Source: Clostridia bacterium (GTDB lineage Bacteria > Bacillota > Clostridia > UBA1212). Taken from it: a stretch of 64,000 bases of DNA. The stretch spans positions 4,560-68,559 of the forward strand of contig JAGDAX010000014.1 of the NCBI GenBank assembly GCA_017848335.1, given 5' to 3'. The position numbers were made by a program, and so were the translations under genes. Positions 1,843 to 59,187 of this stretch are shown here, piece by piece. Below the pieces are notes generated by a model. The model was given only the letters and a program-made list of their open reading frames with translations, made no database searches and was not told the origin of the DNA. The stretch's first letter is position 1, and each line of letters starts with the position of its first letter.

Positions 1843-1891
1843 GGTTTCGCCGGTGGGGATGGCTTCGCCGGTGGGGATGGCTTCGCGAAGG
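1843..1891. repeat. 18-bp tandem repeat, about 2.7 copies (GGYTTCGCCGGTGGGGAT)
   Basis: Adjacent near-identical units read directly, 39 nt after the stop at 1804. Confidence 0.8.
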
Positions 1892-1912
1892 CCTGACGCG
1901 GGATAAAAAAGA

Positions 1913-1956
1913 CAGCAGAGGGGCGCCCCGTGATGTGGCAGGGCGCCCCTCTGCTG
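1913..1956 (-). terminator. Rho-independent terminator hairpin (perfect 16-bp stem)
   Basis: CAGCAGAGGGGCGCCC (1913-1928) pairs with GGGCGCCCCTCTGCTG (1941-1956). The A-run at 1905-1910 gives a T-tract on the minus strand, i.e. downstream of the minus-strand ORF ending at 1994. Confidence 0.65.
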
Positions 1957-1993
1957 CGTCAGGTGTCAGGTGTTGCCGACTGCGGCGAATGCG

Positions 1994-2284
1994 CTACAGG
2001 GCGATTTCCTGAAGCGTACGGGTGTAGATGCAGTCTTCGGTTTCGGAGAGGATATTGACCGAGAACGCTTTGTTGTCGGAGGTGATGACAATGGCACTGT
2101 CGCGGCTGCCGGCCTTGGGGATTTTTGCGACACAGTCCAGCCGACGGATGCACACGTCGTCGCCGTCCGGGAAGTCGCGGCTTCTGAGGAGCATGACGGT
2201 GAAATTGCAGCGCCTTGACGCGGAGGGAGAGGCTTCGGGGCAGGCGGCTTTTATCTTGTCGAAAATGTTTTCGGAGTCAACCAT
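1994..2284 (-). CDS. hypothetical small protein (96 aa)
   Basis: ORF with an AGAAGG-type RBS upstream of its ATG and a terminator hairpin downstream. No family recognised. Confidence 0.45.
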   Translation of the reverse strand: MVDSENIFDKIKAACPEASPSASRRCNFTVMLLRSRDFPDGDDVCIRRLDCVAKIPKAGSRDSAIVITSDNKAFSVNILSETEDCIYTRTLQEIAL

Positions 2285-2644
2285 TGTTTGACCTTCTTTC
2301 GGATCTGTGTTTGCGGTGGCTGGCGGGCATTGCCCTCCAAGGGTATTTTACCATCAAAAAATGAGTTGTAAACCCGGCGGTATTCGAGGAGTAAAGCCTT
2401 GATATTTTCAAGGTTCAGAGCTTCAATCAGGGGCAAGATGAGGTTTTGGGTAACTGTTGTGCGACTTTTAGGGTGAGAAGATCGGGGGGATTATTGCGGA
2501 GGCCGCAGCTGGCGGGGGAAAATGACAGGCGCGGCGTGATTGATTTTCGGGCATGAAATCGGGTATAATACCGTTCGGCGGAACAGTGTTTTGCGGTAGC
2601 TTTCGGGTGGCCGGAATAGGCTTCCCGGTGTGAGGTGCGACGTC

Positions 2645-4987: not shown

Positions 4988-5149
4988 TGCGTGAATCGAA
5001 TGCGCGTGGATCGAATGCGCGTGAATCAAATCCGCGTGGATCGGGCCGCAGCTTCGTCCGCAAGGTGCGCGTGGATCAAATCCGCGTGGATCAAATTCGC
5101 GTGGTTCGGGCCGCGGCTTCGTCCGCAAGGTGCGCGTGGATCAAATCCG
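4988..5149. repeat. nested tandem repeat (15-bp GCGCGTGGATCAAAT-type units inside a ~60-bp higher-order repeat)
   Basis: Read directly. Starts 3 nt after the stop at 4985. The block CGTGGWTCGGGCCGCRGCTTCGTCCGCAAGGTGCGCGTGGATCAAATCC occurs twice. Confidence 0.85.
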
Positions 5150-5379: not shown

Positions 5380-7218
5380 TCAGCGCTTCCTTTTGGCGCC
5401 CTGTTTGTGCTTCGTTACCAGCACCGCAGTCAATACCGCGCCCCCGCCCAAAACGATCAAGGCCGCGGCCGCGGGCAGCGCTGCAGAGGTCATCAACTCC
5501 GAAAACGTCTTTGGTATCCGCGGTTTGCCTCCTTCGCCCGAATTATCCTGCGTTTCGCCTGAATTCGCCTGTCCCGGAGAAGGCGTGGCGGACTGCAAAC
5601 CGGGCGAAAAATCAGACAGTGAATCAGTTCCGTTCGGTGTGCCCTGTGCGCCGCCGGTATTCGCGTATGAATCATCGGTGGCATTGGCGGTTGAATTCCC
5701 GGTGGGAGCCCCCGAAGGATATTCTCCCGGCGATCCGGAGGCATCGCCCGTGGGCTCCCCGTCGCCTGTGGGCTTCCCGGTGGGATTGCCGCCGGGCTTG
5801 GGAGTCGTTGAAGGATCAGAGGTGGGAGTCGACGAAGCAGCTGAAGCAGGCGTAGACCCGGGAGTCGGTGTGGGTGTGGGCGCCTGAGTGGGCCCGGACG
5901 TTGCGGGTGTGACGCTTTCGTCATACCACTCGCCGTTCAGCCAGCTGACGCGCGCCTGCATAAAGTCGGAGAGGAGCTTCACGGACTCCGCGTAATTGTC
6001 GGAGAGCACAAAGACCCCGGTGTTGTTCCAGACGTCCACGTCGTATTGCACCTGCGGAGCAAGCTCGGCCGCCGCCGTGCTGACAAGCGCCAGCCAGTCG
6101 CGCAGAATGCCCTGATTGCTGAGCTGCGTCCAGCGCGTCTTCACCAGGTTCACAAAGTCCTTGCGGTTCAGAAGGTCGATGAACCAGTTGGGCCGCCCCC
6201 AGCTGTTGTCCAGAAAGTGCAGCCCGGTGGTGTCAAGGTTGTTGAAGCGGTCGATGCCCGCCAGCGCCAGGTCGTAATCCCACACCGGCCCCATGTAAAG
6301 CTTGTCGCCGTAGACGTTGTACAGGTAGATGCTGGAATTGAAGAGCGTGTCGTCGTTCTTCATGATCTCGTTGAAAATGTACCAGTCCACCAGCGTGTCG
6401 AGGTCCATGTACTTTCCGATAATATCCAGCGTTTTGCGCTCGGTAATTGAATTCTCGAAGTTCCTGAGGTTCTGCCTGGCGTCGCGCACAGCCTTGTCGA
6501 AGGTGAGGTCGGTGCCCTTCTCGGCGGCCTTCCGCTCAAATTCGTCCCTGGAGGGGTCCTTCACCACGTAAAGGTTGCCAAACTGCGTGCTGAAATTTTC
6601 GGGCTCGCCGTAGCCGTAGTTGTTGTCAAGCTCGAGAAGAACGTCCCCGTGGGAAACGCTGATATTGACGCGCCTGTCGTCGATCTCCACCTTTTCGGTG
6701 ATGAGATAGAGGCCGTTGTAGTTCCCGTTAATGAAAAGGTGCGCCGCCCGGGCCTTGGGAGTGAAGCCGAAGCGCAGCTTCGAGGCCAGCTCGAAGGCGA
6801 GGTAATTGCGGAGCTTGGTCTGGTCCGTGATATTCGCCAGCAGCACCCAGTCCTTGGCCGCCCCGAAGCCGAACCAGTTGGTTTTTTCGTCGCACTTGAT
6901 GGCGTAGGGGCGCTTGGGCTGACCCCATGTGTAATTGCCGCGGCCCTTGATCTGCGCGGTTCGCTCAATGGAGCGGCCGTCGAAGGACAGCTTGCAGGTG
7001 AGCCTTCTCCAGGAATCCTTCTCGATGTCGTACTCCTGATAGCCGTCAAGCGTCAGCTCGAGCACGGAGTATCCCTGCGCGATAAGAGACGCCGGCGTGC
7101 ATTCCGCGGCATCCGCCCCGGTGTGAACCGTGAAGGTCAGACAGCCGGAAAAAGTGACCGCGAATGCGAGCAGCAGCGCGAAGCTTTTCAGGCAATGGTG
7201 GGTGGTTGTGTTTTTCAT
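5380..7218 (-). CDS. CotH kinase family protein, secreted, with Pro/Thr-rich linker and C-terminal TM anchor
   Basis: Motifs GRGNYTWGQPKRPY, KDWVLLAN, LRNYLAFELA, PVWDYDLA as I recall for CotH (PF08757). N-terminal signal/lipobox-like FSGC. C-terminal hydrophobic helix plus KHKQGAKRKR tail. Alternative TTG start at 7230. Confidence 0.85.
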   Translation of the reverse strand: MKNTTTHHCLKSFALLLAFAVTFSGCLTFTVHTGADAAECTPASLIAQGYSVLELTLDGYQEYDIEKDSWRRLTCKLSFDGRSIERTAQIKGRGNYTWGQPKRPYAIKCDEKTNWFGFGAAKDWVLLANITDQTKLRNYLAFELASKLRFGFTPKARAAHLFINGNYNGLYLITEKVEIDDRRVNISVSHGDVLLELDNNYGYGEPENFSTQFGNLYVVKDPSRDEFERKAAEKGTDLTFDKAVRDARQNLRNFENSITERKTLDIIGKYMDLDTLVDWYIFNEIMKNDDTLFNSSIYLYNVYGDKLYMGPVWDYDLALAGIDRFNNLDTTGLHFLDNSWGRPNWFIDLLNRKDFVNLVKTRWTQLSNQGILRDWLALVSTAAAELAPQVQYDVDVWNNTGVFVLSDNYAESVKLLSDFMQARVSWLNGEWYDESVTPATSGPTQAPTPTPTPGSTPASAASSTPTSDPSTTPKPGGNPTGKPTGDGEPTGDASGSPGEYPSGAPTGNSTANATDDSYANTGGAQGTPNGTDSLSDFSPGLQSATPSPGQANSGETQDNSGEGGKPRIPKTFSELMTSAALPAAAALIVLGGGAVLTAVLVTKHKQGAKRKR

Positions 7219-7244
7219 GGATTTTCTCAAAATAAAGCGGTTGG

Positions 7245-7378
7245 GCCGTGCGGCCTTGGTTTTAACGTCAGGTTTTTACGTGCCGTGGATCCTGCACCGG
7301 GCCGCGAGGCCTTGGTTTTAACGTGCGGCCTTGTTTTGACCTGCGGCCGGTTTACCGGGCCGCGAGGCCTTGGTTTTG
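7245..7378. repeat. degenerate tandem/dispersed repeats (GGCCTTGGTTTTAACGT x3; ACCGGGCCGCGAGGCCTTGGTTTT x2)
   Basis: Read directly in the divergent intergenic region between the CotH and esterase genes. Confidence 0.8.
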
Positions 7379-7691
7379 CGCGGCGGCGGTCTGGGCGGAT
7401 TGCCGATGCTTCAGCATAGCACGGCAAAGGGGCGTTTGTCAATCGCAACTTCAAAGGCGCTTCTCAGGGCTTCGCGCGGATTCTCACGCGACTCTTTACG
7501 AGAATTATAGCGCTGCCTGTGCGACTTCCGGCAGCTTCTCGCGGCATCGGCAAAGGCAGCGAACCTTCAAAGTCAGCGAAGTCTCAAAGTCCGCAAACCT
7601 GCAAAATTTCGGAATTCGTTTCATCTTGGCGGGAAATGTGGTAAAATAACCGCAATGGGATAAACCTCGTGACGAAAAGGAGGAATTCTGC

Positions 7692-8459
7692 ATGATTTTT
7701 AACACGTTGAGGTTTTACAGCGAGGCGCTGGGGATGCAGACCGAGGTGCTGGTGCTGCTTCCGCAGGTGGGAACCGCAGGTGAAATCGGCGTCGACAGCG
7801 GAGCAAGGTCGGGCCCGTTTAAGTGCCTGTATCTGCTTCACGGTCTCAGCGACGACCAGACCATCTGGATGCGCAGAACGTCCATCGAGCGGTACGCGGA
7901 AGCATACGGTATTGCCGTGGTAATGCCCTGCGGCGGCCGAAGCTTTTACACGGACATGAAGAAGGGCCAGAATTATTACACCTTCGTGGCGAAGGAGCTG
8001 CCCGCAAGGATCTGCGACACCTTCAACATTTCCGCGGCAAGGCGCGACAATTATATTGCAGGGCTTTCAATGGGCGGCTACGGCGCGCTCAAGATCGGCC
8101 TCCGTGAATGCGCCAGGTTCTCGAAGATCGCAGCCTTCTCTGCGTGCGCGGACATCGAGGACGTGCGGGGCGTATTTGACCCGGACGGCGCCATTTTCGG
8201 GGAGAGCGACAAGGTGGACGCCGGCGACGACCTCTTCCTGCTGGCCGATAAATACAAGGATTCCGAGCTGCGGCCGGACGTATTCATGGGCGTTGGCACG
8301 GAGGACTTCCTCTACGACGCCAACAAGAGGCTCTGCGCGCACTTCAGGGACCTGGGATACAATATCTGCTGGCGCGACTCCCACGGCAATCACGAGTGGG
8401 CCTTCTGGGACGTGTACGTGCGGTTTGCGCTGGAATGGATCTTCGGGAGAGGCGATTGA
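7692..8459 (+). CDS. esterase family protein (esterase D / tributyrin esterase-like)
   Basis: AAAGGAGG RBS. LLHGLSDD motif, nucleophile elbow GLSMGGYGA, C-terminal H (GNHEW). Confidence 0.85.
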   Translation: MIFNTLRFYSEALGMQTEVLVLLPQVGTAGEIGVDSGARSGPFKCLYLLHGLSDDQTIWMRRTSIERYAEAYGIAVVMPCGGRSFYTDMKKGQNYYTFVAKELPARICDTFNISAARRDNYIAGLSMGGYGALKIGLRECARFSKIAAFSACADIEDVRGVFDPDGAIFGESDKVDAGDDLFLLADKYKDSELRPDVFMGVGTEDFLYDANKRLCAHFRDLGYNICWRDSHGNHEWAFWDVYVRFALEWIFGRGD

Positions 8460-8575
8460 GCCGCGGAAAATTCTGAGCCGCGGAAAATGAGATTTGAGCG
8501 GCGGAAAATGAGATCTGAACCGCGGAAAAAGTGCTCGAGCCGCGGAAAAAGTGCTTGAACTGTGGAAATTATTCC
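8458..8575. repeat. ~21-bp tandem repeat, 5-6 degenerate copies (GAGCCGCGGAAAATGAGATYT)
   Basis: Read directly. Begins on the esterase stop codon and ends just before the next gene. Confidence 0.85.
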
Positions 8576-45203: not shown

Positions 45204-45218
45204 AGGAAGGTGTTTATA

Positions 45219-45422: not shown

Positions 45423-45448
45423 TTTAAGAAGCTGTTGGGCTTTTCAGT

Positions 45449-45556: not shown

Positions 45557-45560
45557 GCGG

Positions 45561-46865: not shown

Positions 46866-46913
46866 CTTTGCGCTCCTTGAAAAGTTTTGTGCGGTCTGTT
46901 CGACAATGTGCTG

Positions 46914-48128: not shown

Positions 48129-48581
48129 TTACCGCCGCGCCAGAGCGGCGTCCGTTATATTCCCGGCCTTCACGGCAAGCCTTTTGGCGGCCAGGCCGTC
48201 CTGGATCTGCCCGAAAATATGCTCCTCCAAACCGTTGTCGGCAAGGAGCTTTTTGAATCTGTACAGCGTGGTCGCGTCGGGCACTCTCTCCTCAAGGAAA
48301 TTCAGGTGCATAAATCTGCGCATGGCGTAGCTGTCGTATATCGCGTCCTCAATGCCTTCGTCCGAGAGGCCAAACCACCGTTGAAGCAGGTACATCCGCA
48401 GCATGGTCTCGATGGATTTTGCCCTGCGCCCGCGCGCGTTCCTGTAGTAAAACGGCTTGATCTCCGCGACAATTTCGTCCCAACTGACGATTTCATCCAT
48501 CGCGTCAAGAAACTCCTCGCGCTTTGTTTTGCGTTCGCGGTTACTGTATTCAAGGTCCGTAAAGCTCAGCTGATTTCCCAT
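48129..48581 (-). pseudogene. IS5-family transposase, N-terminal fragment only (150 aa; DDE domain absent)
   Basis: MGNQLSFTDLEYSNRERKTKREEFL...ETMLRMYLLQRWFGLSDEGIEDAIYDSYAMRRF...VPDATTLYRFKKLL aligns with the InsH-type N-terminal domain (DUF772). The similarity ends where VDATII would begin, and no catalytic domain follows. Confidence 0.8.
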
Positions 48582-48894
48582 ACCCGCAGCCTCCTTCCTC
48601 AGTACTTGTATTGTACCACAAAAAGGCCGGCTTGTCGCGCTCAAAAGCCCGATTTTGTGCCGGAATTCGCGCAAAACAGAGAAAAACCCGATAATTCGCG
48701 GGAATTTCCGGGAATTATCGGGAAAATGCATGATCGGGTGATTTTAAAAGCCGGCGGTTTGCGTGAGCAACGGGCGTCGCGCGGGCTTCACGGGCAATGC
48801 TTCGGGCCGCGTGAAGCCTTCACGGATCACGAGGAGAAGGGAAGCTCGCTCAGCCTTCAGGGCAGCCATTCAAGCGTCTGCTTCCTGGGCCCGG

Positions 48895-48966
48895 CAAGCG
48901 TCCGTTCCATCAGCCCTTCAAGCGTCCGTTCGCTCAGTCCTTCAAGCTGCCGTTCGACCGTCCCTG
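48895..48966. repeat. 24-bp tandem repeat x3 (CAAGCGTCCGTTCNNTCAGYCCTT)
   Basis: Read directly. Ends about 20 nt from the stop at 48988. Confidence 0.85.
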
Positions 48967-48987
48967 CACCGGAGCCGGATTGTCGCG

Positions 48988-50919
48988 TCAGTCCGCGCCT
49001 TTCAGCCTGATCGCCCGGACGTACATCACGTCTCCGTCGGCGCAGTCCATGAAGTAATCAAACCGGATCTGGTTGATCGTCCCCGTCCAGACCTTGTTTT
49101 TGGAAAGCCTGACGGTGGCCGTGTGGTACATGCCGTCGCAGACGAGAGCCGTCGAGACAGAGTTCCCCGCCATGGCGCCTGTGACGACGCCGGCAGAAAG
49201 GAAAAGCTCGGACTTCCAGGGCTGGTTCGAATTGGACAGGGGTATCATGTACTCGATCTCGAGCAGCGGATAGTCCTCGGCCATAAGGTCGTCCGCGGAA
49301 TTGTCCGCGAGGCTCAGCGTGCAGTACACGTCGTATCCGGTGGTGACGGTGAGCTTCACGCAGCCTTCTTCCTCGTCATAGCTGACTGCGGTGTTGTTGA
49401 GGTTGACGAACAGATCCTCGGAGCCGCTCTTCGTGAAGTCGAGGTCCGTGAAGTCGTAGAAATCGCCGGTGCCCTCAGGGGGCTTCTTGGCGAGCGTCAG
49501 CCCTGCGTTGTGGGCAAATGTCCTGTTGGCGGTAAAAACGTCGCGTATCTCGCGCGCAGAGCCCGACGCAATCAGATAGCTGTACTCGATAGGCTCAAAG
49601 GAGGTGATCCTCAGCTCGCTGCGGAGACCGATGTAATTGGTGGGATCCGCCATGGAATCCTTGGAGCCGTCGAACTTGAGCCTTCCCGCGTGAATAATAT
49701 CGGTGTTGGGCGTGTATACGCCGATGCCGAAATCGTGCTCGAGGTTCACCCACGCCGCCCAGCTCTCGGTGTTGCCGCGCACCAGATCGAAATGGTTCTG
49801 GCCGGTGTTGTCCTTGCTGGTCCAGTCGGAGACGTCGCTCTTTACGGTAAGCTCCGCGCCCGTCCAGGGCTCCCGGCCGTTGTAAAACACAAGGCTCTCC
49901 AGGTAGCTGACGGTGTAGAACGCGGGCAGCTCCTGCAGGAAATAGGGGTGCGTGAAGCCCGAGAAGTCGACGAACCGGTTGTCCACCTGAATGCGGTCCT
50001 CCAGCAGAACGTAGGTGTTCTCATAGTAGCAGGGGAGCAGCAGGTCGTTGTTGCCCCAGTCCTTGGGCTGGCACTTCACGTATATCTGATTTTCGCCAGT
50101 TTTTACGTCAATCAGGCGCGAATTTGTGTTGAATCTGTCGCCGCCCTGCACCGGGTTGTAGTTCCACGGGAGATCCAGGAACGTCCCCGGGTCGTAAACG
50201 CCTTCGATCGCCCCGGTGCCGTAGAAGGACTGCTGCACCAGCCGCCCCGTGTCGTGCTGGTTGACCAGATTTTCCACACCGTCAATGCGCGCGTTCTTGT
50301 CGGCAATATAGCTGACGGCGCCGCCCCAGGCCAGCCTTACGCCCAGCCTGTACCGCGCGTTCTCGATGAAGCTGTTTCCGTCCTTGTCGGCGGCGGGGAG
50401 CTCCGCTGCTTCGGTGGTGATCTCTTTCAGGGCGAAGCTGACTTTTCCGACGGTTTTTCCAGTGCTTCCTGCGCTTCCTGCGCTTCCTGCGGCCGGCAGC
50501 GGTTTGACGGTTAATTTGCGAAGCCCTGTGCCGCTTTTTCCGTCAAGCGCCCTGCTGATCAAGCCCGTGAATATACCGCCCTCCGCTTTTTCCAAAAAGT
50601 AATTGTCCGACAATATCTCGTCGCCGTCCTTATATTCGATCAGAATTTCAACGGGTCCGGAGCTGTTGTAGCTGACGGTGAATTTATTGAACGGGTCCGC
50701 GAAGCGCTCCGCTTCAAGCTCGAAGGAATAGCTTCCGTCGACCTCGACACCGTTCTCCGAAGATACGTCGCCTGTGCCCGAAGGCGCTGCAGTGGCTTTG
50801 CCTGTGTTCCCGCTGCCTTCACCGTTTTGCCCGGCACACGAAGACAGTCCCGCCGCGACAGCCGGCAGCAGGAATGCCGCCAATATCAAAGCAATGATCC
50901 TCTTGAAATGCTTTGCCAT
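48988..50919 (-). CDS. hypothetical lipoprotein (643 aa), probable glycan-active or glycan-binding
   Basis: GGAGG RBS. Lipobox AAGLSSC. C-terminal beta-sandwich-like tail (INQIRFDYFMDCADGDVMYVRAIRL). No catalytic family recognised. Confidence 0.8.
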   Translation of the reverse strand: MAKHFKRIIALILAAFLLPAVAAGLSSCAGQNGEGSGNTGKATAAPSGTGDVSSENGVEVDGSYSFELEAERFADPFNKFTVSYNSSGPVEILIEYKDGDEILSDNYFLEKAEGGIFTGLISRALDGKSGTGLRKLTVKPLPAAGSAGSAGSTGKTVGKVSFALKEITTEAAELPAADKDGNSFIENARYRLGVRLAWGGAVSYIADKNARIDGVENLVNQHDTGRLVQQSFYGTGAIEGVYDPGTFLDLPWNYNPVQGGDRFNTNSRLIDVKTGENQIYVKCQPKDWGNNDLLLPCYYENTYVLLEDRIQVDNRFVDFSGFTHPYFLQELPAFYTVSYLESLVFYNGREPWTGAELTVKSDVSDWTSKDNTGQNHFDLVRGNTESWAAWVNLEHDFGIGVYTPNTDIIHAGRLKFDGSKDSMADPTNYIGLRSELRITSFEPIEYSYLIASGSAREIRDVFTANRTFAHNAGLTLAKKPPEGTGDFYDFTDLDFTKSGSEDLFVNLNNTAVSYDEEEGCVKLTVTTGYDVYCTLSLADNSADDLMAEDYPLLEIEYMIPLSNSNQPWKSELFLSAGVVTGAMAGNSVSTALVCDGMYHTATVRLSKNKVWTGTINQIRFDYFMDCADGDVMYVRAIRLKGAD

Positions 50920-51078
50920 TCAAATGACCTCCTGAGGTGGTTGAATCACTCATTATTTTACACTGTTTTCGGTGTAAAAGCCAACTTTTCCGATCTTGGT
51001 TTTTTCTTCGCACGCTTTGCCGCAAGACGGAGCGCCCTAAGCGCCTCATAAGGCGGAATTGCCGCGGCGCCTGTTTAA

Positions 51079-52668
51079 CTATTTAAATCCGTACTTTCTT
51101 ATGAAATACGCCGGGGTGCAGCTCCAGGCGTGACAATAGCTGTTCATGAGCGGCGAGCCGTAGGGCGAGGCATCCGGATTCCCGGGCACGTAGACCTCGT
51201 AGAAGCAATCCGCTCCTTCTTTTACCATGCCGCCCCAGTAATCCTTGATGAGCTTCAGGGCGTCCCTGCGGAGGTCTGCTGCGACCAGCGCTTCCGCCAG
51301 GAAATGCATCGCGAAGGGGGTCACCGGGCGCACTATATCGCCGCCGTCCATGAGGGCGAGAGTGTTCTTCATGATGACGCGGGAGGTGGCCTTGTCGAAT
51401 ACGCCGGAAAGCACGCCGAAGGCCTGAGACAGCACCGACACCTGACCGCTCGCGGGCACCAGAAGGCCGGATTCGACGCGGAAATAACCTCTCATGCGGG
51501 CAATTCCCGGGCCGACAATACCTGCCAGCCTTTGGGCGTCCTTGCTGCGCTTGAGGATGCCTGCCAGCTCCGAAGCCTCTTTGAGCATCATGATGAAAAC
51601 GCCCTCCGCGGGAATGGTCTTGTCGAGGGAGGGGCACCAGTCTATGAAATACCTGTCCGCGGGAAGGTATTCGGCGACGCGGGTATCGGCGTTCGCGTGA
51701 ACGTCTTCGTCCGTGTGAACGTCTTCGCCCCCGTGAACGTCTTCGTCCGCGTGAATGCTTTCGTCCTCGTGAAAATATTCGTCCGAATGAACGGATCCCG
51801 CGACGGCTTCCGCCTGCCGCAGGGCAACCGGCCACAGCTCGCGCAGCGTCTCAACGTCCTTTGTGGCCCTATAATAATCCGCCAGTGTGCCGATGAAAAA
51901 CAGTGCGTAATCGTGCAGTATCCAGGCCTGGCCGCGCAGCACCGGTTCGTGGAAAACGGCGGAGCTTACAAGGCCGTCGGGGTGGGGGAGCCCGGCGAAA
52001 AGATACAGGCAGCGCTTCACGAGGTCGTTGTTTCCGAAGGTGTAATAATTCGTCCTTGCCTGCAGATAAAGGTCGCCCAGCCACAGGCGGCGGTCCCGCT
52101 TGGGCCCGTCCTCAAAGACCTCCTGCATGCAGTCCCTCAAGGTTCTGACGGCGGTTTCGTCTATCTTCCTGACAAGTGACGACGTCTGCGGGGGCAGCGG
52201 TGCAATTGCCGCCTCATCCGCGGAGGTGACCGCCGTGACGGTGCAGCCCGCGTATCTGACGGAGTAGCTTGTATTGGCGGTGAAGGTGATCTTTGCGTAC
52301 CTGAAAGCATACCGCCTGGGGAGCGTGAATGCCTCCAGAGGGTTGTCGATATGCACGGTTTCGTGCTGGAACCAGGAACGGGACATGCCGCCGCTGTAGG
52401 GCCTTTCTTCAAGCTCGCTGAGGACCTCCGCGAATTTGAACTCGACCAGAAGCGGCGAGTCCGGCGACAGGTCGTCGTCCCTCCGGCAATCCAGAGCGAG
52501 GGTGATGCGGCCCACCAGGTGCGTGCCGAAATCCAGAAGGAGCGAGCCGCCGTCCCTGAGCCATTCGCCCTCGCCGGTAACCTTGACGGGGCGCACCGTT
52601 TTTTTGTTCAGGAGAGGCTTCAGGCTCAAGGCCTTTTCGAGATAATGAGCGCCGCTGTTTTCTCTCAT
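51079..52668 (-). CDS. GH78-like six-hairpin glycoside hydrolase (no signal peptide)
   Basis: FEDGPKRDRRLWLGDLY parallels the DCPxRER-GW motif. C-terminal SYCHAWSCTPAYF resembles the GH78 C-terminal region. The ATG overlaps the upstream stop (ATGA at 52665-52668). Confidence 0.75.
   Translation of the reverse strand: MRENSGAHYLEKALSLKPLLNKKTVRPVKVTGEGEWLRDGGSLLLDFGTHLVGRITLALDCRRDDDLSPDSPLLVEFKFAEVLSELEERPYSGGMSRSWFQHETVHIDNPLEAFTLPRRYAFRYAKITFTANTSYSVRYAGCTVTAVTSADEAAIAPLPPQTSSLVRKIDETAVRTLRDCMQEVFEDGPKRDRRLWLGDLYLQARTNYYTFGNNDLVKRCLYLFAGLPHPDGLVSSAVFHEPVLRGQAWILHDYALFFIGTLADYYRATKDVETLRELWPVALRQAEAVAGSVHSDEYFHEDESIHADEDVHGGEDVHTDEDVHANADTRVAEYLPADRYFIDWCPSLDKTIPAEGVFIMMLKEASELAGILKRSKDAQRLAGIVGPGIARMRGYFRVESGLLVPASGQVSVLSQAFGVLSGVFDKATSRVIMKNTLALMDGGDIVRPVTPFAMHFLAEALVAADLRRDALKLIKDYWGGMVKEGADCFYEVYVPGNPDASPYGSPLMNSYCHAWSCTPAYFIRKYGFK
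51696..51785 (-). repeat. in-frame 18-bp tandem repeat x5 inside the CDS (encodes HSDEYFHEDESIHADEDVHGGEDVHTDEDVH)
   Basis: GTGAACGTCTTCGTCCGT-type units counted directly on the plus strand. Confidence 0.9.
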
Positions 52669-55232
52669 TGGTCATCATGCTCCTTTTCTTTTTTTGCTTT
52701 GGCGCGGGCTGCGTAAACGGCAGCTGCAGAGCAAACGGCGCCGGCTGAAACGGCCGCGGCTGAAACGGCAGCCGCGCCTGAAGGCAGCGCACCCTTGCAG
52801 CCCCTTGCGCTTCTGTCACCGTCGGACTTGGGCGGAATCATCCCGGCGGCAAGCTGATATTTGAATCTGCCGCCCGGCGCAGTGTCGCCCATAGTATAAA
52901 GCTCCAGCACGTCCGGAGCCCCGGCCTTCTCCAAAAGGTTGTTGTCCGCCCATTTGAAATTGAGCACGAACCCGCCTTCGGCCACGCCGAGGTCTGCACG
53001 CTTCACGCGCACCTGGATCGTATTGCCGGTCACGCGGTAGTCCGCGTCGGAAACCTTCTCCCAGCTCCAGCCGCCCTTTGACCTCTCGAGGGCAGTCAGG
53101 CTGTCGCTTTCGGGGGTGCTCCTGTTGATAATGAAGTTGAAGCTTTCCCAGGAGGGCAGGGCGCTCTTCTTGCCGGAGGTCGGGACCACCTCTATGAGAA
53201 GCCGCATCCAGGCATTGTCGGTGCGGGCCGTGATATTTTCCGCGGTTTCGGCGAGGAAATAGACGTATTCCGCGTCGTAGGATGCCTTGGCGGACACGAT
53301 GTCGTTGCGGCCCGAATCGTCGGTGTAGCGGAAAAACTCGCCGGTGTAATTGTTTTTGTACCCCAAAGAATCGCGGTCTCCGGTGTCGCCGCCGTAGGAT
53401 TCGTACACGCTTGTCACGTCGTCCCAGCCCTCGCCGGTGGCTATGTCAACTGTCACGGGGCCTGCGGCCGGAGAGGCAGCGGGCACGCCCTTGTACTTGC
53501 GGATAAACTCGCACAGCTGGTAGTAATAGTGATCCTTGAGGTCGCCCTTGGAGGGCTCGATGTCGCGGCTGAATTCGTCGCTGAAATTGTCCGGGAACGC
53601 GTTGGGCACGCCCAGGAAGTCCTCGAAGCGGCCGGCCACACCCTCGTTCCAGCCAGTGACCCACACAAATTCGGGGTCCACCGAGAGAGCGTATTCCCAC
53701 TGCTCCTCGAAATAGGCGCCGTAAAGCTTGGCATCGGGACGCGGGTCGTAGTCCTTGAGTGAGGGCCTGTAATGCCTGCCGAAGACCTTGTACTCGCTGT
53801 TGTTCATTGCGGTGAGATGCGTCTCTGCGCACCAATTGTGGGCGATGGCCACCGCCACCTCCTCCGGCGTGCCGTCCGGGTTTTTATTCACGAGCTGCGG
53901 ACTGACCGCGATCCAGTTCCACAGAATATAATTGTCCTCGATCTCCTTCTGGATGGCGCCCATGATGCGCGGCGTGCCGTCCGGATCCATGACCTGAACG
54001 TGGTCCTGCGACTGGGCGTGGTTGATCACGCGATAATTGAAAAAGTCGATTATTTCCGCGTCAAGGGGATCCCGCCCGGACAGCATTCCCGGCCATCCCA
54101 CGATGAGAGGCTTGCCCTTCCAGAAGAACCACAGATCCTTGTAAATTCCCTCTTTATAGAGCTTTTTGTATATCTCGCGAAGCTGCGCCGCGGTGTCGCC
54201 GTACTCAAACATCGGGAGCATAAACGAAATCTTGGGCGCGTTGACGCCTTCCGCTCTCGCCTCGGACCAGACCTTGAGAAGCACCAGCACGTCGTCCATA
54301 AAGGTCGCGGTTCCGTTGGTGTTGTCAAAGAAGACCGCGTCCACGCCTGCGTCCGCCAGAAGCTCCGCCTGCCGCCTCAGCACCCATTCGTCGCTTGACC
54401 GGTAGTAGCCCCACAGCGGCTCGTTCCAGTGGTAGGCGCCGGCATTTCCCCACAGCGGGCTCGTGAAGTCGTTCCTGATCTCAGGGTGTTCACTGAGAAT
54501 CTCGGTAATGTTGCGTGTGCCCAAGGGGGCGTTGCTGCTGTGCCACGTGTGGAAAAAGATGCCGACGGTCTTGCCGGGCCTCGAGGTGTCGGTGTATGAG
54601 TTATGGACGCTTCTCCCGAGCCCGTCGGTGGCTACCCAGGTGCCCTGCGAGCTGACCAGGTAAATATTGTTTGGGGAGATCTCCTGCAGCGTGCCGCCTC
54701 CTTCCTTGTAGACGACCCGCGCGTTGACGTTCCCGTCGCGGGCAGACGCGTTAAGGTAGGTCCGGGCGAAGTCGGAATTGCCGCGCTCCAGCGTCAGCTG
54801 AACGTTGCCCTTGCTGTCCTTTATGACCAGCAGATACTCGCCTGCGGGTGCGCTGACCTTGAGGCTCAGCCACACGTCCATGTCAAAGCCCTCGAAGACC
54901 TGTGAAGCGATGGGCGTGCCCTTCACGGTCTGCCCGTAACCGCCCTGCCACGCGTAAAGCTCGGCGGTGAGGCCGGTCAGGCTGTTCATCGACACCTTCG
55001 CCACGTAAATTTCGACCGCGGCGATCTCCTGACAGGGTGCAAACTGCACCGCGTAGGTGTTGCCGGAGAGCTTCACGAGCTCGGTGGCGTTGTCAGGGTT
55101 TGCAAAATACTGTACGCTTCCTTTGGCCATACTTTTGATCAGTCCTCCCGTCAATATTATCAGTCCGCAAAGCACGGCGCACACGGCTGAGGCTATGCGG
55201 CTTTGGCCGGTCTTTTTGTGATTGTGGTTCAT
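52665..55232 (-). CDS. membrane-anchored putative glycoside hydrolase-like TIM-barrel protein (855 aa)
   Basis: N-terminal signal anchor. GIFFHTWH...WGYYRSSDEWVLRRQAELLADAGVDAVFFDNTNG is typical of (beta/alpha)8 glycosidase-like families. C-terminal Ala-rich helix plus a KAKKEKE tail. Family assignment is tentative. Confidence 0.7.
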   Translation of the reverse strand: MNHNHKKTGQSRIASAVCAVLCGLIILTGGLIKSMAKGSVQYFANPDNATELVKLSGNTYAVQFAPCQEIAAVEIYVAKVSMNSLTGLTAELYAWQGGYGQTVKGTPIASQVFEGFDMDVWLSLKVSAPAGEYLLVIKDSKGNVQLTLERGNSDFARTYLNASARDGNVNARVVYKEGGGTLQEISPNNIYLVSSQGTWVATDGLGRSVHNSYTDTSRPGKTVGIFFHTWHSSNAPLGTRNITEILSEHPEIRNDFTSPLWGNAGAYHWNEPLWGYYRSSDEWVLRRQAELLADAGVDAVFFDNTNGTATFMDDVLVLLKVWSEARAEGVNAPKISFMLPMFEYGDTAAQLREIYKKLYKEGIYKDLWFFWKGKPLIVGWPGMLSGRDPLDAEIIDFFNYRVINHAQSQDHVQVMDPDGTPRIMGAIQKEIEDNYILWNWIAVSPQLVNKNPDGTPEEVAVAIAHNWCAETHLTAMNNSEYKVFGRHYRPSLKDYDPRPDAKLYGAYFEEQWEYALSVDPEFVWVTGWNEGVAGRFEDFLGVPNAFPDNFSDEFSRDIEPSKGDLKDHYYYQLCEFIRKYKGVPAASPAAGPVTVDIATGEGWDDVTSVYESYGGDTGDRDSLGYKNNYTGEFFRYTDDSGRNDIVSAKASYDAEYVYFLAETAENITARTDNAWMRLLIEVVPTSGKKSALPSWESFNFIINRSTPESDSLTALERSKGGWSWEKVSDADYRVTGNTIQVRVKRADLGVAEGGFVLNFKWADNNLLEKAGAPDVLELYTMGDTAPGGRFKYQLAAGMIPPKSDGDRSARGCKGALPSGAAAVSAAAVSAGAVCSAAAVYAARAKAKKEKEHDDQ

Positions 55233-55428
55233 GGTTTTGTTCTCCGTTTTTTGATGCGGATCCGGACGCGGCCTGGCGCGGCAGGAGGCCCGGATGCGGT
55301 TTGGGTCGGTTTGGGTTTGGATTTTCGGGTTGCGGGTCGGTCTGGGCTTTGGGGCCGCGGGACGGGCCCTTCTGCCGCCCGTACTTTTCCCGGCTTCAGG
55401 GACCGGCTTCAGATAAAGATCCGGCGTC

Positions 55429-56274
55429 CTATTCCAGCCCGGAGTCGCTGAGCGGCCCGTACTTATTGTTGGGCGTGTCGACGTACGTCAGCTTCGCGCA
55501 GACTGAAACGTCGTACCATATCTCATCGTCAAGATACGCCCGCTGATAAGGGCATTCCGCGTTCACGAACCACACGCCCGAATTGCACATTGCCGCGGTG
55601 GAGCCGTATTCCGCCGCGAGAATATATTCCCCCGCGGGCAGACTTTCTGCTTCCAGCGGCACCAGTACGCCGTCCTGCCAGTCCTCGAGGAACGCGGTCG
55701 CCACAGGCTTCCCGGTCATTGTGGAATCGTAATCGCCCGCCCATTTGTACAGGCTGTATTCAACGTTGTATCCTTCTTTGGCGGTCCAGGTAGGCGACTC
55801 AAAGCCGACGGAAGAAAACGCTGCCGTGGCACGGAACTGCATCGCGATAATATGCCCCGTTCCGCAATAAGCCTCCTTGGCCCCGTTTTCGTAAAGCGCG
55901 GCAGTGCTTTTCCTGCCTTCCGCTTTGATGCCGCCGGAATAATCGGTCTCCTCCGTCCCCGAAGGCTTCCCGGTGGGAGCTGTGCCCTCTGTCCCGGATC
56001 CTCCTGTCTTGATTTCCTCAGTCCCGGTTTCTCCGGTATCGCCGCCCGGAGTCCCTGAAGGGTCGCTGCTGGGCACGGGAGAGGTGGTCCTCCTTGGCGC
56101 GTCAGGGCTGCCTTCTTCCGCACCGGCGGTGTCAAAAGCGGGAACAGGGGAGGCGTCGGAATGCATTTTCCCCGGATCTGTGTTACCGGTCTGCCCGGTG
56201 CACCCGCCAATGCCTGCCGCCGCGATAATGACCGCCAGAAGCGCCGTTATTGTTACCGTAAATTTTGTCCTCAT
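55429..56274 (-). CDS. hypothetical lipoprotein (281 aa)
   Basis: GGAGG RBS. Lipobox AAGIGGC. Gly/Thr/Pro/Glu linker. The C-terminal domain is paralogous to the N-terminal domain of the 855-aa neighbour. Confidence 0.8.
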   Translation of the reverse strand: MRTKFTVTITALLAVIIAAAGIGGCTGQTGNTDPGKMHSDASPVPAFDTAGAEEGSPDAPRRTTSPVPSSDPSGTPGGDTGETGTEEIKTGGSGTEGTAPTGKPSGTEETDYSGGIKAEGRKSTAALYENGAKEAYCGTGHIIAMQFRATAAFSSVGFESPTWTAKEGYNVEYSLYKWAGDYDSTMTGKPVATAFLEDWQDGVLVPLEAESLPAGEYILAAEYGSTAAMCNSGVWFVNAECPYQRAYLDDEIWYDVSVCAKLTYVDTPNNKYGPLSDSGLE

Positions 56275-56575
56275 GGCAAGAAGATCCTCCTGCTGTTTAT
56301 GGGAGCATTATATCATAGGAACGGGGCGCGTGCCAAGGGCTTCAGCATCGTTTCAGCATCGTTTCAAGCCTCGCGGCCGGAGCATCGAGCTTTGCGGCAG
56401 GAGCCGGTCGCAGCCGCGAAAAGAGGATATCAGAACTACGACAAGAGCCATCCGGAGCCACGCCTGCCGCCACGCCGGCCGCCACGTCTGCCGCCGCGCC
56501 GAAAGCTGCGCCCGCCGCCACTCCGAAGGCCGCGCGCAAGGAAACACCTGAAGACGTTCAAAAGCTGAAGACATG

Positions 56576-56640
56576 CAAAAAACCTGCCGCAGCAGGATCC
56601 CGAAGCAGAAGCTTTGGATCCCGAGGGCAGGGCTTTTGTT
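56576..56640. terminator. bidirectional Rho-independent terminator (compound hairpin)
   Basis: CCTGCC...GGATCC / GGATCC...GGCAGG stems, flanked by AAAAAA (56577-82) and CTTTTGTTT. About 90 nt downstream of the minus-strand stop at 56730. Confidence 0.6.
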
Positions 56641-56729
56641 TACGCTTGATTTGTGACGATCAGGCAGTCCGAGACCGAACTATCCGATACCGGTCCGTCC
56701 GATACCGGTCCGTCAAAAATCGATCCGCA

Positions 56730-57734
56730 TCAGTAAGCCTTCACGGTGACGTTGTCGATTATCGCACCGACGCAGTGCGTCCAGATGGAGAAGCTTGCGC
56801 CATCCAGAATGCCCGGATCGTTTTCGATCGACTTGACGAGGGTGCCGCTTGCGTCGTACACGGAGACGTTGTCGCCGCTCGCGTCAACGGAGCAGACAAG
56901 CGCGGAGTTGACGTAGAGGAACGCCTTCTTCTCGTTGGTGGTAACCATCGTGACGTGGGCCTCGCTCTTGAAGAGGTCCTTTTCGCCCTTTACCACGGCT
57001 GCGCCGGTCGGGAAGCCGCCGTCACCCAAGCCTGTGACGCCGATAAGCGGGAACTGGCCGCGGTTGTTCAAGCCGATGAAGAGACCGTCCGTGGGGTCGA
57101 CCGGAATACGTGAAATGGGATTCGTAAGGAAGAAACCCACAAACGAAGCAAACCACACGCCGTCGTCTCTTACGGTGCCGCTGTTCTCGCCCAGATACGC
57201 GAGCTTGAGGTCAAAGGAAAGCTGAACCTGCTGGTAGCCGGACGCGCTGAAGTCCTCGAGTTCGTCGATGAGCGGGTAGTATGCGTTGTGGTTGTCCAGA
57301 GCCTCGCCGTCAAGAATGTTGAGGCAGAGCTTGCCGTCCACAACCTCTTCTCTGCCCTCGGTGTTGAGTCCCGCGTTGTCGAGGAAGGTGGAGTCGTCGT
57401 CAAACGCCTCCGAGAAGAGCGTCTCAAGGCCTTCAAGGTCATCCTTGAAGATCTTGCCCTTGTCCTCGCCAAGGTCCACCTTCACGACGGGAACCTCTGT
57501 GGGAGCTTCGGTAGGTGCCTCGGTAGGCTCTTCCGTGGGCTCTTCAGCCGGTTCGTCCGTGGGATCCCCGACCGGAACGTCAGTGGGCTCTTCAGCGGGA
57601 GCCTCTGTGTTCTGCCCGGATGGTACTTCCGTGGGGGTGGTCTGTTCATCGGGTGCTTTTGTGCAGGCAGCAAAAGATAAAATGATGCAGAGAGCCGTAA
57701 TTACAGCGATTATGCACGTTCCTATTCTTTTCAT
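56730..57734 (-). CDS. hypothetical lipoprotein (334 aa), concanavalin/LamG-like by eye
   Basis: AGGAGG RBS. Lipobox LSFAAC. Pro/Thr/Glu linker (EEPTEEPTEAPTEAPTE). Confidence 0.8.
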   Translation of the reverse strand: MKRIGTCIIAVITALCIILSFAACTKAPDEQTTPTEVPSGQNTEAPAEEPTDVPVGDPTDEPAEEPTEEPTEAPTEAPTEVPVVKVDLGEDKGKIFKDDLEGLETLFSEAFDDDSTFLDNAGLNTEGREEVVDGKLCLNILDGEALDNHNAYYPLIDELEDFSASGYQQVQLSFDLKLAYLGENSGTVRDDGVWFASFVGFFLTNPISRIPVDPTDGLFIGLNNRGQFPLIGVTGLGDGGFPTGAAVVKGEKDLFKSEAHVTMVTTNEKKAFLYVNSALVCSVDASGDNVSVYDASGTLVKSIENDPGILDGASFSIWTHCVGAIIDNVTVKAY

Positions 57735-57885
57735 ATTGTTCCTCCTGATGGAATTGTCGAAGCAAAATATGGCCTTGCTTCATGATAAATGAAGTATAAA
57801 GCGAAAACTGCCTGATGTCAATAGAGGTGATTCCCGTTGAACAAGACCACCCGTTACAATTTTACACCGTCATTCCCATTGACTG

Positions 57886-58716
57886 CTACAACACTATAAC
57901 CAGTTCGATCATTTGTTCGCACACAGATGAGTCGCCGATACTCACATCGTACTGTCTTACGACGGCTGTTTGATTGTTTTCAAGTATCGTGAGCAGTGTA
58001 TTTTTGATTTCGTAACGATACGTGCAGCCCTCCTTTTCAATGCTCTTGAGCTTTTGCATGGCATTTTCGTCTATCATTTTCTCTGTGTCGTCGGGAAGAG
58101 TCAGATCGTCGGGAACACGCTCTGTCATTGTGGACGCATATCCGATAATATCGCCGTCATAGTTCAAAGTTACGGAAAAGGAATCCGTGGCTGTGAATCC
58201 TGCCACTTCTTGCGAGAAACAGACTGCGGTATATTTTGAATATGGATCGTCAGACACATTAATGATCGTGTATGCGGATATATTCCTCAGTGAGGAAGCA
58301 AACTGCTTAGCCTTTTCTATACATTCGGAATCGGATAATGCTTGAACTTCAGAAGCGGCTTTTCTGGGAAAGATGAAGAAAGACAGCTTTCCGTCGGTTT
58401 CAGTCATAAACAATCCTTCATCACTCATATATTCATACTCCAAATAAGTGTTATATTTTCTTTTGGACGTGCCGGAGTATGTTCCTTTAACATCGTGACC
58501 GTCTATTGAGATCGTCATTTCTCCCGGCGCATCCGGGGATTCGCTGACAGTACAGAATTGAAAATCCGCTTCCGCTATGATGAAGTCGGCATTGTCCGAT
58601 ATATCGGACGCGTAAACCGATAACGTTTTGTTGTTTCTATACGGGTCGGTCGCACATCCGAAGGCAGAACCTGCAACCAGTACGACGGTAATTACTAATA
58701 TGATCATCTTTTTCAT
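57886..58716 (-). CDS. hypothetical lipoprotein (276 aa) in a low-GC islet
   Basis: AAGGAG RBS before MKKMIILVITVVLVAGSAFGC (lipobox). The local sequence is visibly more AT-rich than its neighbours. Confidence 0.75.
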   Translation of the reverse strand: MKKMIILVITVVLVAGSAFGCATDPYRNNKTLSVYASDISDNADFIIAEADFQFCTVSESPDAPGEMTISIDGHDVKGTYSGTSKRKYNTYLEYEYMSDEGLFMTETDGKLSFFIFPRKAASEVQALSDSECIEKAKQFASSLRNISAYTIINVSDDPYSKYTAVCFSQEVAGFTATDSFSVTLNYDGDIIGYASTMTERVPDDLTLPDDTEKMIDENAMQKLKSIEKEGCTYRYEIKNTLLTILENNQTAVVRQYDVSIGDSSVCEQMIELVIVL

Positions 58717-59041
58717 GGTTTGTGTCTCCTTATTCATAATTGTTCATAAATCAGAAAGTTGGCACGCCGAAAATCTTCAGCAGCTTAAGTCTACCGTATC
58801 ATTTCGTAACAGTCTTACTACAAAACGTTACACTATCCGGCACACAGCACACCTGGCACACAGAGCGCAGCACATGGAACACAGAGCGCATACGGTGATT
58901 TGCGGTCTTTGAAACACTGCAGTCATTGAAACGATGAGAGCAAAGCAAAACCGGCGGAAGGTGGAAATGCCGGGCGAAAAACGTAATATTCCTGCGGAGC
59001 TGCCGTGCGGCAAACCGTTTTATTCGATAAACACTGAAAAC

Positions 59042-59187
59042 CCGAAAAAAACGATATTCCGCGACGATCTCGAAAAGCCCCGAAAAAAAACGATATTCCG
59101 CGACGATCTCGAAAAGCTCCGAAAAAAACCGACATTCCGCGATACCTCCGAAAAACCGCGATACCCCCGAAAAACCGCGATAGCCCC
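59042..59187. repeat. tandem repeat: ~38 bp x2 (GAAAAAAACGATATTCCGCGACGATCTCGAAAAGCYCC) then ~19-29 bp x3 (GAAAAACCGCGATA-type)
   Basis: Read directly. A further CGGCKTTTYC-type array follows at about 59250-59335. Confidence 0.9.

Follow-up and report, generated by a model that had tools for sequence, protein, structure and literature searches.

Locus-specific tandem repeat arrays occupy about a quarter of the intergenic DNA in a 64-kb window of a Clostridia genome and vary among near-identical strains

INTRODUCTION

Variable-number tandem repeat (VNTR) loci, such as those typed by multiple-locus VNTR analysis (MLVA) in Yersinia pestis, Bacillus anthracis, Brucella, and Xanthomonas, consist of head-to-tail units of ~10 to 100 bp that are mostly intergenic or in-frame in genes, differ in copy number between close strains, and are generally attributed to slipped-strand mispairing or unequal recombination (PMC1781188, PMC1513380, PMC4045669). 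Here, we analyze short tandem arrays of this type in the intergenic DNA of an uncultured gut or rumen Clostridia bacterium, in one 64-kb window of its genome (contig JAGDAX010000014.1 of assembly GCA_017848335.1; "the window" means this whole stretch). Compared to the described VNTR loci, the window is far denser, with 0.75 arrays/kb and a quarter of its intergenic DNA in arrays, and the turnover between sister species is complete. Typed pathogens have a few dozen usable VNTR loci per genome.

Mycobacterial interspersed repetitive units (MIRUs), enterobacterial repetitive extragenic palindromes (REPs), and bacterial interspersed mosaic elements (BIMEs) are likewise short intergenic repeats, sometimes tandem and sometimes overlapping stop or start codons. 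However, they are dispersed families in which one related unit recurs genome-wide, and REPs are palindromic, whereas the window units are unrelated to each other and not palindromic. CRISPRs consist of constant repeats of ~23 to 50 bp separated by unique spacers, whereas in the window each unit directly adjoins the next without a unique spacer, and the Pfam matches of the 40 window open reading frames (ORFs) scanned include no Cas domain. The original prediction, which was made from the sequence of the window alone, had set the arrays apart from REP/BIME elements, CRISPR, and the ends of insertion sequences (IS). This exclusion holds, as there is no shared unit and there are no hairpins.

Contingency loci (1- to 8-bp units, as in Neisseria, Haemophilus, and Campylobacter) and intergenic heptamers (10.1101/309039) are hypermutable by slippage and may sit in promoters, whereas the window units are 10 to 83 bp long, lie in all kinds of spacers, are not at surface-antigen genes, and do not switch a reading frame on and off. 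Iteron-like or other binding-site arrays, with a core and a variable spacer at a fixed period, fit arrays of two relatives described below but not those of the window, which have no common core. Intrinsic terminators place a GC-rich hairpin and a T-run downstream of a gene, an arrangement that the window arrays do not have (scan of 1 to 20 kb). Finally, intergenic spacers of Plantago plastomes (PMC11354287) and of the Balanophora mitogenome (PMC12625411) are alike in that young, lineage-specific, locus-specific repeats fill the spacers of a compact genome. There, the build-up of repeats is linked to altered repair or recombination and to a faster pace of sequence evolution (PMC11354287, PMC12625411), and for Balanophora a loss of DNA repair and recombination genes is reported (PMC12625411). 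The difference is that these are organelles, whereas the window comes from a free-living bacterium. In the literature on Clostridia, we found no described case of spacers saturated with such arrays.

RESULTS

Density and distribution of the arrays

Arrays were called with Tandem Repeats Finder (TRF), and densities were counted at a score of at least 50 and a period of at least 6, with the same setting for all sequences. The window (54.5% GC) comprises a backbone of ~57 to 61% GC and a low-GC island (36 to 44%) at ~34.9 to 45.5 kb. After merging, 40 arrays were found, all of them in the backbone, which corresponds to 0.75 arrays/kb, 187 arrays of at least 100 bp per Mb, and 5.65% of bases in arrays. 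The frequencies in 160 loci of other Clostridia (2.13 Mb) were 0.083 arrays/kb, 17 arrays of at least 100 bp per Mb, and 0.68% of bases, and the comparators with a GC content of at least 0.53 had 0.109 arrays/kb. A comparison with other Clostridia had been proposed in the original prediction, and it places the backbone far higher, at 9 to 11 times the density of the other Clostridia. First-order Markov simulations of the window (n = 20) gave 0 or 1 array each, and 50 kb of Escherichia coli K-12 gave 1. A survey of 7,006 prokaryotic genomes counted 161,465 periodic DNA repeats of all kinds, or ~23 per genome (10.1101/309039), compared to 40 arrays in the 64-kb window alone. Independent short-read assemblies of the same species also carry the arrays, at 0.57 to 0.72 arrays/kb; therefore, the density contrast is not due to sequencing technology. 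The observation is confirmed and lies far beyond chance.

All 20 arrays first reported were recovered at the same positions or within a few bases of them by TRF, repeat search, and direct reading. Among these, the unit of the array then placed at 28189 to 28310 had been given as 12 to 14 bp and was found to be 10 to 11 bp, in ~12 copies at 28174 to 28305. The array of four 32-bp units at 45449 to 45557 does hold four copies at exact 32-bp spacing, though TRF scores only 2.5. The segment from 1921 to 1963 was considered as an array and rejected; it is a terminator hairpin with a 19-bp stem.

A gene model built from GC content at third codon positions (GC3), Pfam domains, ribosome-binding sites, and ortholog alignments has 40 genes and a coding share of 84.5% of the window. 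By this model, at a TRF score of at least 40, 31 arrays are intergenic and 17 are coding. An array is present in 20 of the 30 backbone spacers of at least 50 bp, and arrays make up 26.5% of the backbone intergenic bases. Therefore, the claim that almost every intergenic region is filled is too strong; "almost every" is really about two-thirds of the spacers. The occupied spacers are convergent, divergent, tandem, and within an operon (zur-znuC), beside housekeeping and accessory genes alike.

Variation between strains

Same-species contigs, 99.4 to 99.9% identical to the window, were recovered from nine metagenome samples by exact-protein look-up. The comparison covers 7.5 to 8.5 kb and ~15.7 to 64 kb of the window. 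Copy number, which the original prediction suggested comparing across strains, varied by whole units in 6 of 24 intergenic arrays and in none of 12 coding arrays. All strain-versus-window insertions and deletions (indels) of at least 4 bp were gains or losses of repeat units in intergenic DNA.

Two of the six variable arrays had alleles seen in more than one sample. First, the array at 28174 to 28305, whose 10- to 11-bp unit (CCGGGGAAAT(A/G)) recurs ~12 times with phased A-tracts and which lies 47 nt ahead of ATG 28352, the start of the GH78-like gene, had an allele of +33 bp (3 × 11, at 28185) and reshuffled units in three samples. Second, the array at 46911 to 46993 (16 bp × 5), 45 nt upstream of the aminotransferase start, occurred as three alleles: one sample had −16 bp, two had +41 bp with a different set of unit variants, and the third allele was that of the window (0). 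The other four had one variant allele each. The array at 25522 to 25651 (36 bp × 3.6, in the spacer that separates ZnuB from the following gene) was two units (~72 bp, 2 × 36) shorter in ERZ27257298, and the ERZ28653429 scaffold has an N-gap there. The same ERZ27257298 carried +52 bp at 16886 to 17041, where 31-bp units lie in an 83-bp higher-order unit. SRR32285421 had one 39- to 40-bp unit fewer (−40 bp) at 59041 to 59188 (39 bp × 2.6 plus 19 bp × 2.7), and the L081 strain lacked the first 17-bp unit at 8456 to 8568 (21 bp × 5.7), where the first unit contains the TGA stop codon of an esterase gene. The alleles differ in the composition of unit variants as well as in number. Apparent substitutions were 22 per kb in intergenic arrays, 2.2 in other intergenic DNA, and 1.45 in coding sequence (CDS), i.e., the apparent density of single-nucleotide polymorphisms (SNPs) in arrays was 10 times that in other intergenic DNA.

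A good example of a strain-specific change is the 22-mer at 32141 to 32162 on the minus strand (GCCGCAGATGCACCGCAAGGAC), which is single copy in the window and in five other samples but a perfect tandem duplication (GCCGCAGATGCACCGCAAGGAC × 2) in ERZ27257298, with a junction homology of only 2 nt (AC). This is the birth or loss of an array. In the same sample, an imperfect duplicate of 23 bp lies upstream of Exo_endo_phos at ~33128; this site exists only once in the window and in five other samples.

Sister species and relatives

A sister species (L181) was recovered via its 91%-identical M18 aminopeptidase; nucleotide identity in CDS is ~80%. L181 keeps the gene order of the window, and the same spacers hold arrays in both species, but neither the units nor the periods are related. 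For instance, the amidohydrolase-aminotransferase spacer holds 16 bp × 5 in the window and 22 bp × 2 in L181, the M18-Exo_endo_phos spacer holds 20 bp × 3.2 and 17 bp × 4.1, respectively, and the Fur-ZnuC spacer holds 21 bp × 2.7 plus 44 bp × 2.1 compared to 16 bp × 2. The nucleotide alignment ends at gene boundaries, and the shared spacers sum to ~1.9 kb in the window versus 1.1 kb in L181, the excess being mostly array. The arrays have been fully replaced between the two species.

The DAGK-Fur spacer is not shared, as the window has a GH78-like gene inserted there; L181 has a heptamer array (7 bp × 43) at this place. Heptamer arrays were present in spacers of several other Clostridia (L181 13582 to 13880, L037, L045, and L059), e.g., TTTGCAA × 43, AAGATAC × 9.6, and TTAGTGG × 32, and none were present in the window. 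The intergenic heptamers common in prokaryotes (10.1101/309039) are thus matched by these four loci and not by the window.

The nearest genomes in the species-level collection are the rumen/gut metagenome-assembled genomes (MAGs) Ruminococcus sp. RUG13779 and Mageeibacillus sp. UBA1212 and the "Clostridia bacterium" RGIG isolates, with 61 to 64% protein identity and conserved gene order; Mageeibacillus is placed in the Oscillospiraceae. The top protein identities in genome_contigs and metagenome_contigs were 64% and 61%, respectively, and the loci recovered there were used as comparators and not in the strain analysis. The density was 0.6 to 0.75 arrays/kb in the window species, 0.33 in L181, 0.75 in RUG13779 (L001), 0.22 in UBA1212 (L002), and 0.06 to 0.16 in L003 to L005, and it is lower in more distant relatives. 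In 22 kb of an unrelated Clostridia MAG from the Hadza gut (L074, 976 to 21241), there are nine locus-specific arrays of 96- to 175-bp units × 1.8 to 3.6, covering 10.8% of the locus. Therefore, the array-rich trait recurs in some high-GC Clostridia.

In the related genus represented by L001 and L002, the arrays are built differently, with a conserved 12-bp core, GGA[AG]AATCCAC, and a variable 8-bp spacer at a 20-bp period, in 22 and 9 copies. They lie at 5393 to 5592, 6823 to 6982, and 8366 to 8525 in L001 and at 6947 to 7066, 8302 to 8328, and 9739 to 9832 in L002, partly at orthologous positions, and the ATCCACA of the core resembles a DnaA box. Neither the window nor L181 contains an exact copy of the core. 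As a hidden family of the window it was rejected, with 12 relaxed CGGARAATCCAC matches compared to 12.5 expected.

Coding arrays and position relative to genes

The period is a multiple of 3 in 15 of 17 arrays inside genes, compared to 12 of 31 intergenic arrays, where one-third is the chance level. None of the strain indel sizes 16, 17, 22, 23, 40, 41, and 52 bp is divisible by 3. Within genes, the arrays occupy low-complexity linkers. The in-frame array at 24115 to 24201 (minus strand, 45 bp × 1.9) lies in a low-complexity stretch of ~80 residues of a 725-residue protein that is missing from the L181 ortholog (91 gap positions over the whole alignment). Other in-frame examples are 29237 to 29332 (plus strand, 15 bp × 5.4, encoding GKEAA repeats in the GH78-like gene; invariant in four samples), 51690 to 51793 (minus strand, 18 bp × 5.8, in a GH78 gene; invariant in three samples), and 57526 to 57635 (minus strand, 12/48 bp, in a secreted protein, within its PT-rich N-terminal linker). 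In-frame coding arrays, one of them in a stretch missing from the L181 ortholog, mean that the duplication process is not confined to spacers and that selection decides where its products survive.

Arrays come as close as 3, 4, and 15 nt to stop codons, and the unit at 8456 includes a TGA, whereas they come no closer than 23 to 32 nt to confidently placed start codons. This is as expected if only unconstrained DNA tolerates arrays. Many arrays had been predicted to begin 0 to 40 nt after a stop codon. This is true for 7 arrays, but a comparable number lie instead 23 to 90 nt upstream of start codons.

Taken as observations, the arrays are real, dense, locus specific, noncoding, and hypervariable between near-identical strains, and the coding arrays are in-frame and stable.

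Unit sequence and structure

TRF periods range from 10 to 83 bp, with 2 to 12 copies and 67 to 100% matches. Many arrays are nested, with 15-bp units in 65 bp, 31-bp units in 83 bp, or 21-bp units in 42 bp, and an 18-bp array is a duplicated 90-bp block of five units. Such a hierarchical structure is typical of repeated duplication rounds.

The units do differ from locus to locus, as originally described, and no k-mer or common substring is shared beyond chance among the 31 intergenic arrays. No 6- to 8-mer occurs in more arrays than GC-rich composition explains, and any two window arrays share at most 12 consecutive nt, inside the control range; this random-segment control was partly spoiled by overlapping segments, and only its nonoverlapping replicates (maxima of 10 to 15) are informative. 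None of 14 arrays folded as single-stranded DNA was more stable than its shuffles (z, −1.8 to +1.5), and inverted repeats were few. Rfam covariance models at the gathering score and searches for tRNA and transfer-messenger RNA (tmRNA) gave 0 matches in the window. No clear core-plus-spacer conservation was seen inside window arrays, unlike in L001; the nearest case is the array at 8456, in which the CCGCGGAAAA core is more conserved than the rest of the unit.

The unit type described earlier as a GC clamp followed by an A- or T-tract proved anecdotal, since an A/T run of at least 4 is present in only 6 of 31 units, 2 of which have a helical period. A-tracts phased at 10 to 11 bp are clear in 28174 to 28305 only, and with 6 of 31 units phased A-tracts are not supported as a general property. 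On a reading by eye with no formal test, units downstream of genes (4989, 8456, and 1830) are balanced or rich in G, whereas Rho-loading sites are rich in C. The strong terminator-like sites in the scanned 1 to 20 kb (1957 to 1912 and 19377 to 19338) are single hairpins, not arrays. Only the repeats at 7243 to 7382 contain a weak 5-bp hairpin and a T-run, and they lie upstream, not downstream, of both flanking genes.

Origin of the arrays

The arrays are probably noncoding minisatellites of the VNTR type that are made and continually remodeled by an ongoing, lineage-specific mutational process. An unusually active process of local duplication was one of two explanations offered in the original prediction, and it is supported by the strain variation, the strain-specific 22-bp duplication, the in-frame coding arrays, the turnover relative to L181, the fall-off in density, and the lack of arrays inside the recently acquired island. 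In such a process, short segments of ~10 to 85 bp would be duplicated locally in tandem, and slipped-strand mispairing or unequal exchange would then add copies, remove copies, and shuffle sequence among units. Selection would act against products in reading frames (save in-frame ones where a linker tolerates them), around ribosome-binding sites and starts, and at other signals under constraint, so that the survivors would pile up in intergenic DNA that is free to vary, with a turnover faster than species divergence. The molecular route is more plausibly replication slippage or template switching than end-joining fill-in. Indirect signs of slippage or unequal exchange are the indels of whole units, the higher-order units, and the perfect 22-bp duplication with its 2-nt homology. 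We infer that a raised input rate, rather than unusually weak removal, sets the lineage apart and that most arrays have no function of their own and are likely duplication debris. Individually, the arrays are ordinary VNTR loci or minisatellites; what is unusual is their load and complete locus specificity.

Several points weigh against this explanation. First, the A-tracts of the array at 28174 to 28305 are phased as in textbook examples, and a gene begins just downstream. Second, 15 of 31 periods deviate by no more than 1 bp from a multiple of 10.5 bp, a modest excess compared to the 27% expected under a uniform distribution (post hoc P of ~0.009 to 0.03); the share in the comparators was 19% of all arrays and 34% of arrays with a period that is not a multiple of 3. 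Third, the presence of arrays in the same spacers of both sister species may reflect selection that favors a given spacer length or the mere presence of an array, and not coincidence at a high duplication rate. Fourth, the core-plus-spacer arrays of L001 and L002 look selected, like protein-binding sites, to judge by their sequence pattern. Fifth, the high density could reflect weak removal, not high input. Finally, the strains are metagenome consensus contigs, and some allele differences could be assembly choices; yet the +33-bp allele recurs in three samples and the +41-bp allele in two.

A rival view is that the arrays are selected regulatory or structural elements, such as curved or UP-like DNA, platforms that bind a nucleoid-associated or regulatory protein, transcription insulators or terminators, or evolvable "tuning knobs" in which copy number would set the expression of the adjacent gene. 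In its favor, the arrays recur in the same spacers of L181, ~12 of them lie 23 to 90 nt upstream of start codons, helical-repeat periods are in weak excess, the phased array at 28174 to 28305 has a copy number that varies among strains, a small hairpin with a T-run is repeated three times at 7243 to 7382, and L001 and L002 combine a conserved core with variable spacers. However, unit sequence, period, and copy number are not conserved in L181, nor are they between 99.5%-identical strains. No motif is common to the 31 arrays, none has excess secondary structure, A/T runs of at least 4 are confined to the 6 units noted above, every type of spacer is occupied beside both classes of genes, and the same process leaves in-frame arrays inside genes. 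We consider this view improbable as a general account. Likewise, a structural role (phased A-tracts, Rho loading, or nucleoid-protein loading), the other explanation offered originally, is unsupported in general because nothing about the arrays is conserved; there is no excess folding and only one phased array. It retains a low probability through the recurrence of arrays in the same L181 spacers, the weak post hoc excess of helical periods, and the phased array ahead of the GH78-like gene.

That the arrays are a single diverged family of dispersed repeats or relics of mobile elements (REP/BIME-like, CRISPR-like, or like miniature inverted-repeat transposable elements [MITEs]) is very unlikely. 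One 12-bp core is indeed spread over several spacers in L001 and L002, and a few window units have CCGCGGAAA- or CCGGGAAAT-like strings. However, exact copies of that core are absent from the window and L181 and relaxed matches are at the chance level, the longest substring between arrays is within the control range, inverted repeats and hairpins are lacking, no constant repeat alternates with unique spacers, no cas domain is among the Pfam matches, and the units of new duplications derive from local unique sequence.

There is similarly little chance that the arrays are unannotated coding sequence, either repeat-containing small proteins or N- or C-terminal extensions of flanking genes. Long ORFs do stay open through arrays, at 13249 to 15048 (18 bp × 10), at 28148 to 30895 (the 11-bp array), and in the Zur ORF (two arrays), and 12 of the 31 intergenic periods are multiples of 3. 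However, Pfam domains, ortholog alignments, and strong Shine-Dalgarno sites put the true starts past the arrays, at ATG 14430 (methyltransferase), ATG 28352 (GH78-like), and ATG 46865 (aminotransferase). The in-frame share of intergenic periods is at the chance level, most strain indels are not multiples of 3, and the orthologous proteins of L181 and L001 to L005 have no such extensions.

Finally, although short-read scaffolds carry N-gaps, and Logan and other short-read contigs often end, exactly at longer arrays, the idea that the arrays are assembly or polishing artifacts of one assembly can practically be dismissed, as separate assemblies, made with several assemblers from at least nine samples, contain the same arrays down to the base, and point changes distinguish neighboring copies.

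One tentative scenario, which we regard as possible but rather doubtful, is that a heritable replication or repair change in a clade of high-GC Oscillospiraceae-like Clostridia greatly raises tandem duplication of 10- to 100-bp segments. This clade would span the window species, L181, and RUG13779, with L074 perhaps an independent case. If true, the intergenic DNA would be in permanent flux and a quarter of it would consist of arrays that arose after the species did, which would parallel in a bacterium the spacers filled with repeats in some organelle genomes. The flux could also be exploited as genome-wide tuning knobs of expression, given the period preference of ~10/20 bp and the arrays 25 to 90 bp upstream of genes, and should even a subset of arrays modulate neighboring genes, rapid variation in regulation would follow from them.

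The compactness of bacterial genomes is ascribed to deletion bias and selection, and a free-living gut or rumen anaerobe with one-quarter of its spacer DNA in young, hypervariable minisatellites is an outlier. The lineage could reveal replication and repair functions that normally suppress short tandem duplication. In practical terms, the arrays break short-read assemblies and inflate ORF calls (several long ORFs run through them, and one Fur/Zur gene lacks its normal stop), and they are ready-made strain markers of very high resolution for tracking in metagenomes.

Individual arrays, the low-GC island, and neighboring genes

The remaining intergenic arrays are given here in the order of the window. 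An 18-bp × 3.2 array at 1830 to 1886 was called by TRF 25 nt past the stop of a Cthe_2159-domain gene. At 4989 to 5149, 15-bp units are nested in a 65-bp unit × 2.3 that begins 3 nt past the GFO/GH109 stop in a convergent spacer. The divergent CotH/esterase spacer has, at 7243 to 7382, a 26-nt core (small GC hairpin plus T-run) × 4 at spacings of 56, 19, and 39 bp, followed at 7551 to 7605 by 17 bp × 3.2, 86 nt upstream of the esterase start and equal in copy number in L081. Two arrays, 33 bp × 2.6 and 18 bp × 9.9, span 14463 to 14724, 32 nt upstream of the true RlmI-like methyltransferase start. A 19-bp × 2.6 array (17096 to 17143, TRF) is followed by 10 bp × 2.9 (ATAGGTTATA) at 17228 to 17256, which overlaps a promoter-like site upstream of an AAA_14 gene. 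At 20661 to 20782, 21 bp × 5.8 (42-bp higher order) lies 33 nt upstream of a polysaccharide deacetylase start. TRF also called 20 bp × 3.0 at 23078 to 23136 (94% matches), 17 bp × 2.2 at 28022 to 28057, 24 bp × 3.9 at 48863 to 48956, a weak 10 bp × 2.0 at 55297 to 55316, 21 bp × 2.0 at 58850 to 58890, and 28 bp × 2.1 or 9 bp × 5.6 at 59242 to 59305. The 20-bp × 3.2 array at 33217 to 33279 is upstream of the Exo_endo_phos gene, and a single spacer at 56341 to 56714 has four small arrays (11 bp × 2.4, 24 bp × 3.3, 17 bp × 1.9, and 15 bp × 2.1 to 2.7).

Two arrays lie at the 3′ end of the Fur/Zur gene, 21 bp × 2.7 at 27264 to 27320, between zur and znuC, and 44 to 47 bp × 2.1 at 27334 to 27437, which overlaps the last codons of the gene, with no stop codon at the orthologous position. 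The gene (26719 to 27828, minus strand) has no stop where the L181 ortholog ends (residue 137), and the ORF continues for 233 codons, first through the arrays from 27437 to 27264 and then over znuC in a different frame. The stop codon may have been lost to tandem duplication.

The low-GC island (34,850 to 45,560) encodes a tyrosine integrase (35088 to 35963), a cohesin protein (36364 to 38538), and a 2,206-residue dockerin/Big_2/Flg_new protein (38583 to 45203). It is present in all same-species contigs and missing in L181, in which the M18 aminopeptidase gene directly adjoins the aminotransferase gene; the island is a recent acquisition. Its interior (~10 kb) has no array with a score of at least 50, and small arrays occur at its two edges only, 10 bp × 2.6 (TTTGGATCGG) at 34874 to 34899 on the left and AATTTTGTGATGA × 4 at exact 32-bp spacing at 45449 to 45557 on the right, ending 4 nt from the aminotransferase stop. 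No direct repeats of at least 10 nt (att sites) flank the island. Matches to AATTTTGTGATGA number 7 in the window compared to 1.3 expected, four of them at the right edge. The two edge arrays may be arm-type recombinase sites that belong to the island rather than to the backbone.

Two further segments are inserted in the window relative to L181, an 11.7-kb block at 47,849 to 59,588 between the amidohydrolase and GFO genes (a DUF772 transposase fragment, GH78, and several hypothetical and PT-rich proteins) and the GH78-like gene at 28,352 to 30,895 between DAGK and zur. Unlike the low-GC island, both have the GC content of the backbone and contain arrays. The backbone genes include GH78 rhamnosidases, esterases, CotH, an RlmI-like methyltransferase, NUDIX, Zur-ZnuCB, M18 aminopeptidase, aspartate aminotransferase, and transketolase subunits. 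Just past the right end of the window, a same-species contig (L172, 16945 to 18559) has an AbiEi/AbiEii toxin-antitoxin (abortive infection) gene pair after the transketolase/aldehyde dehydrogenase operon.

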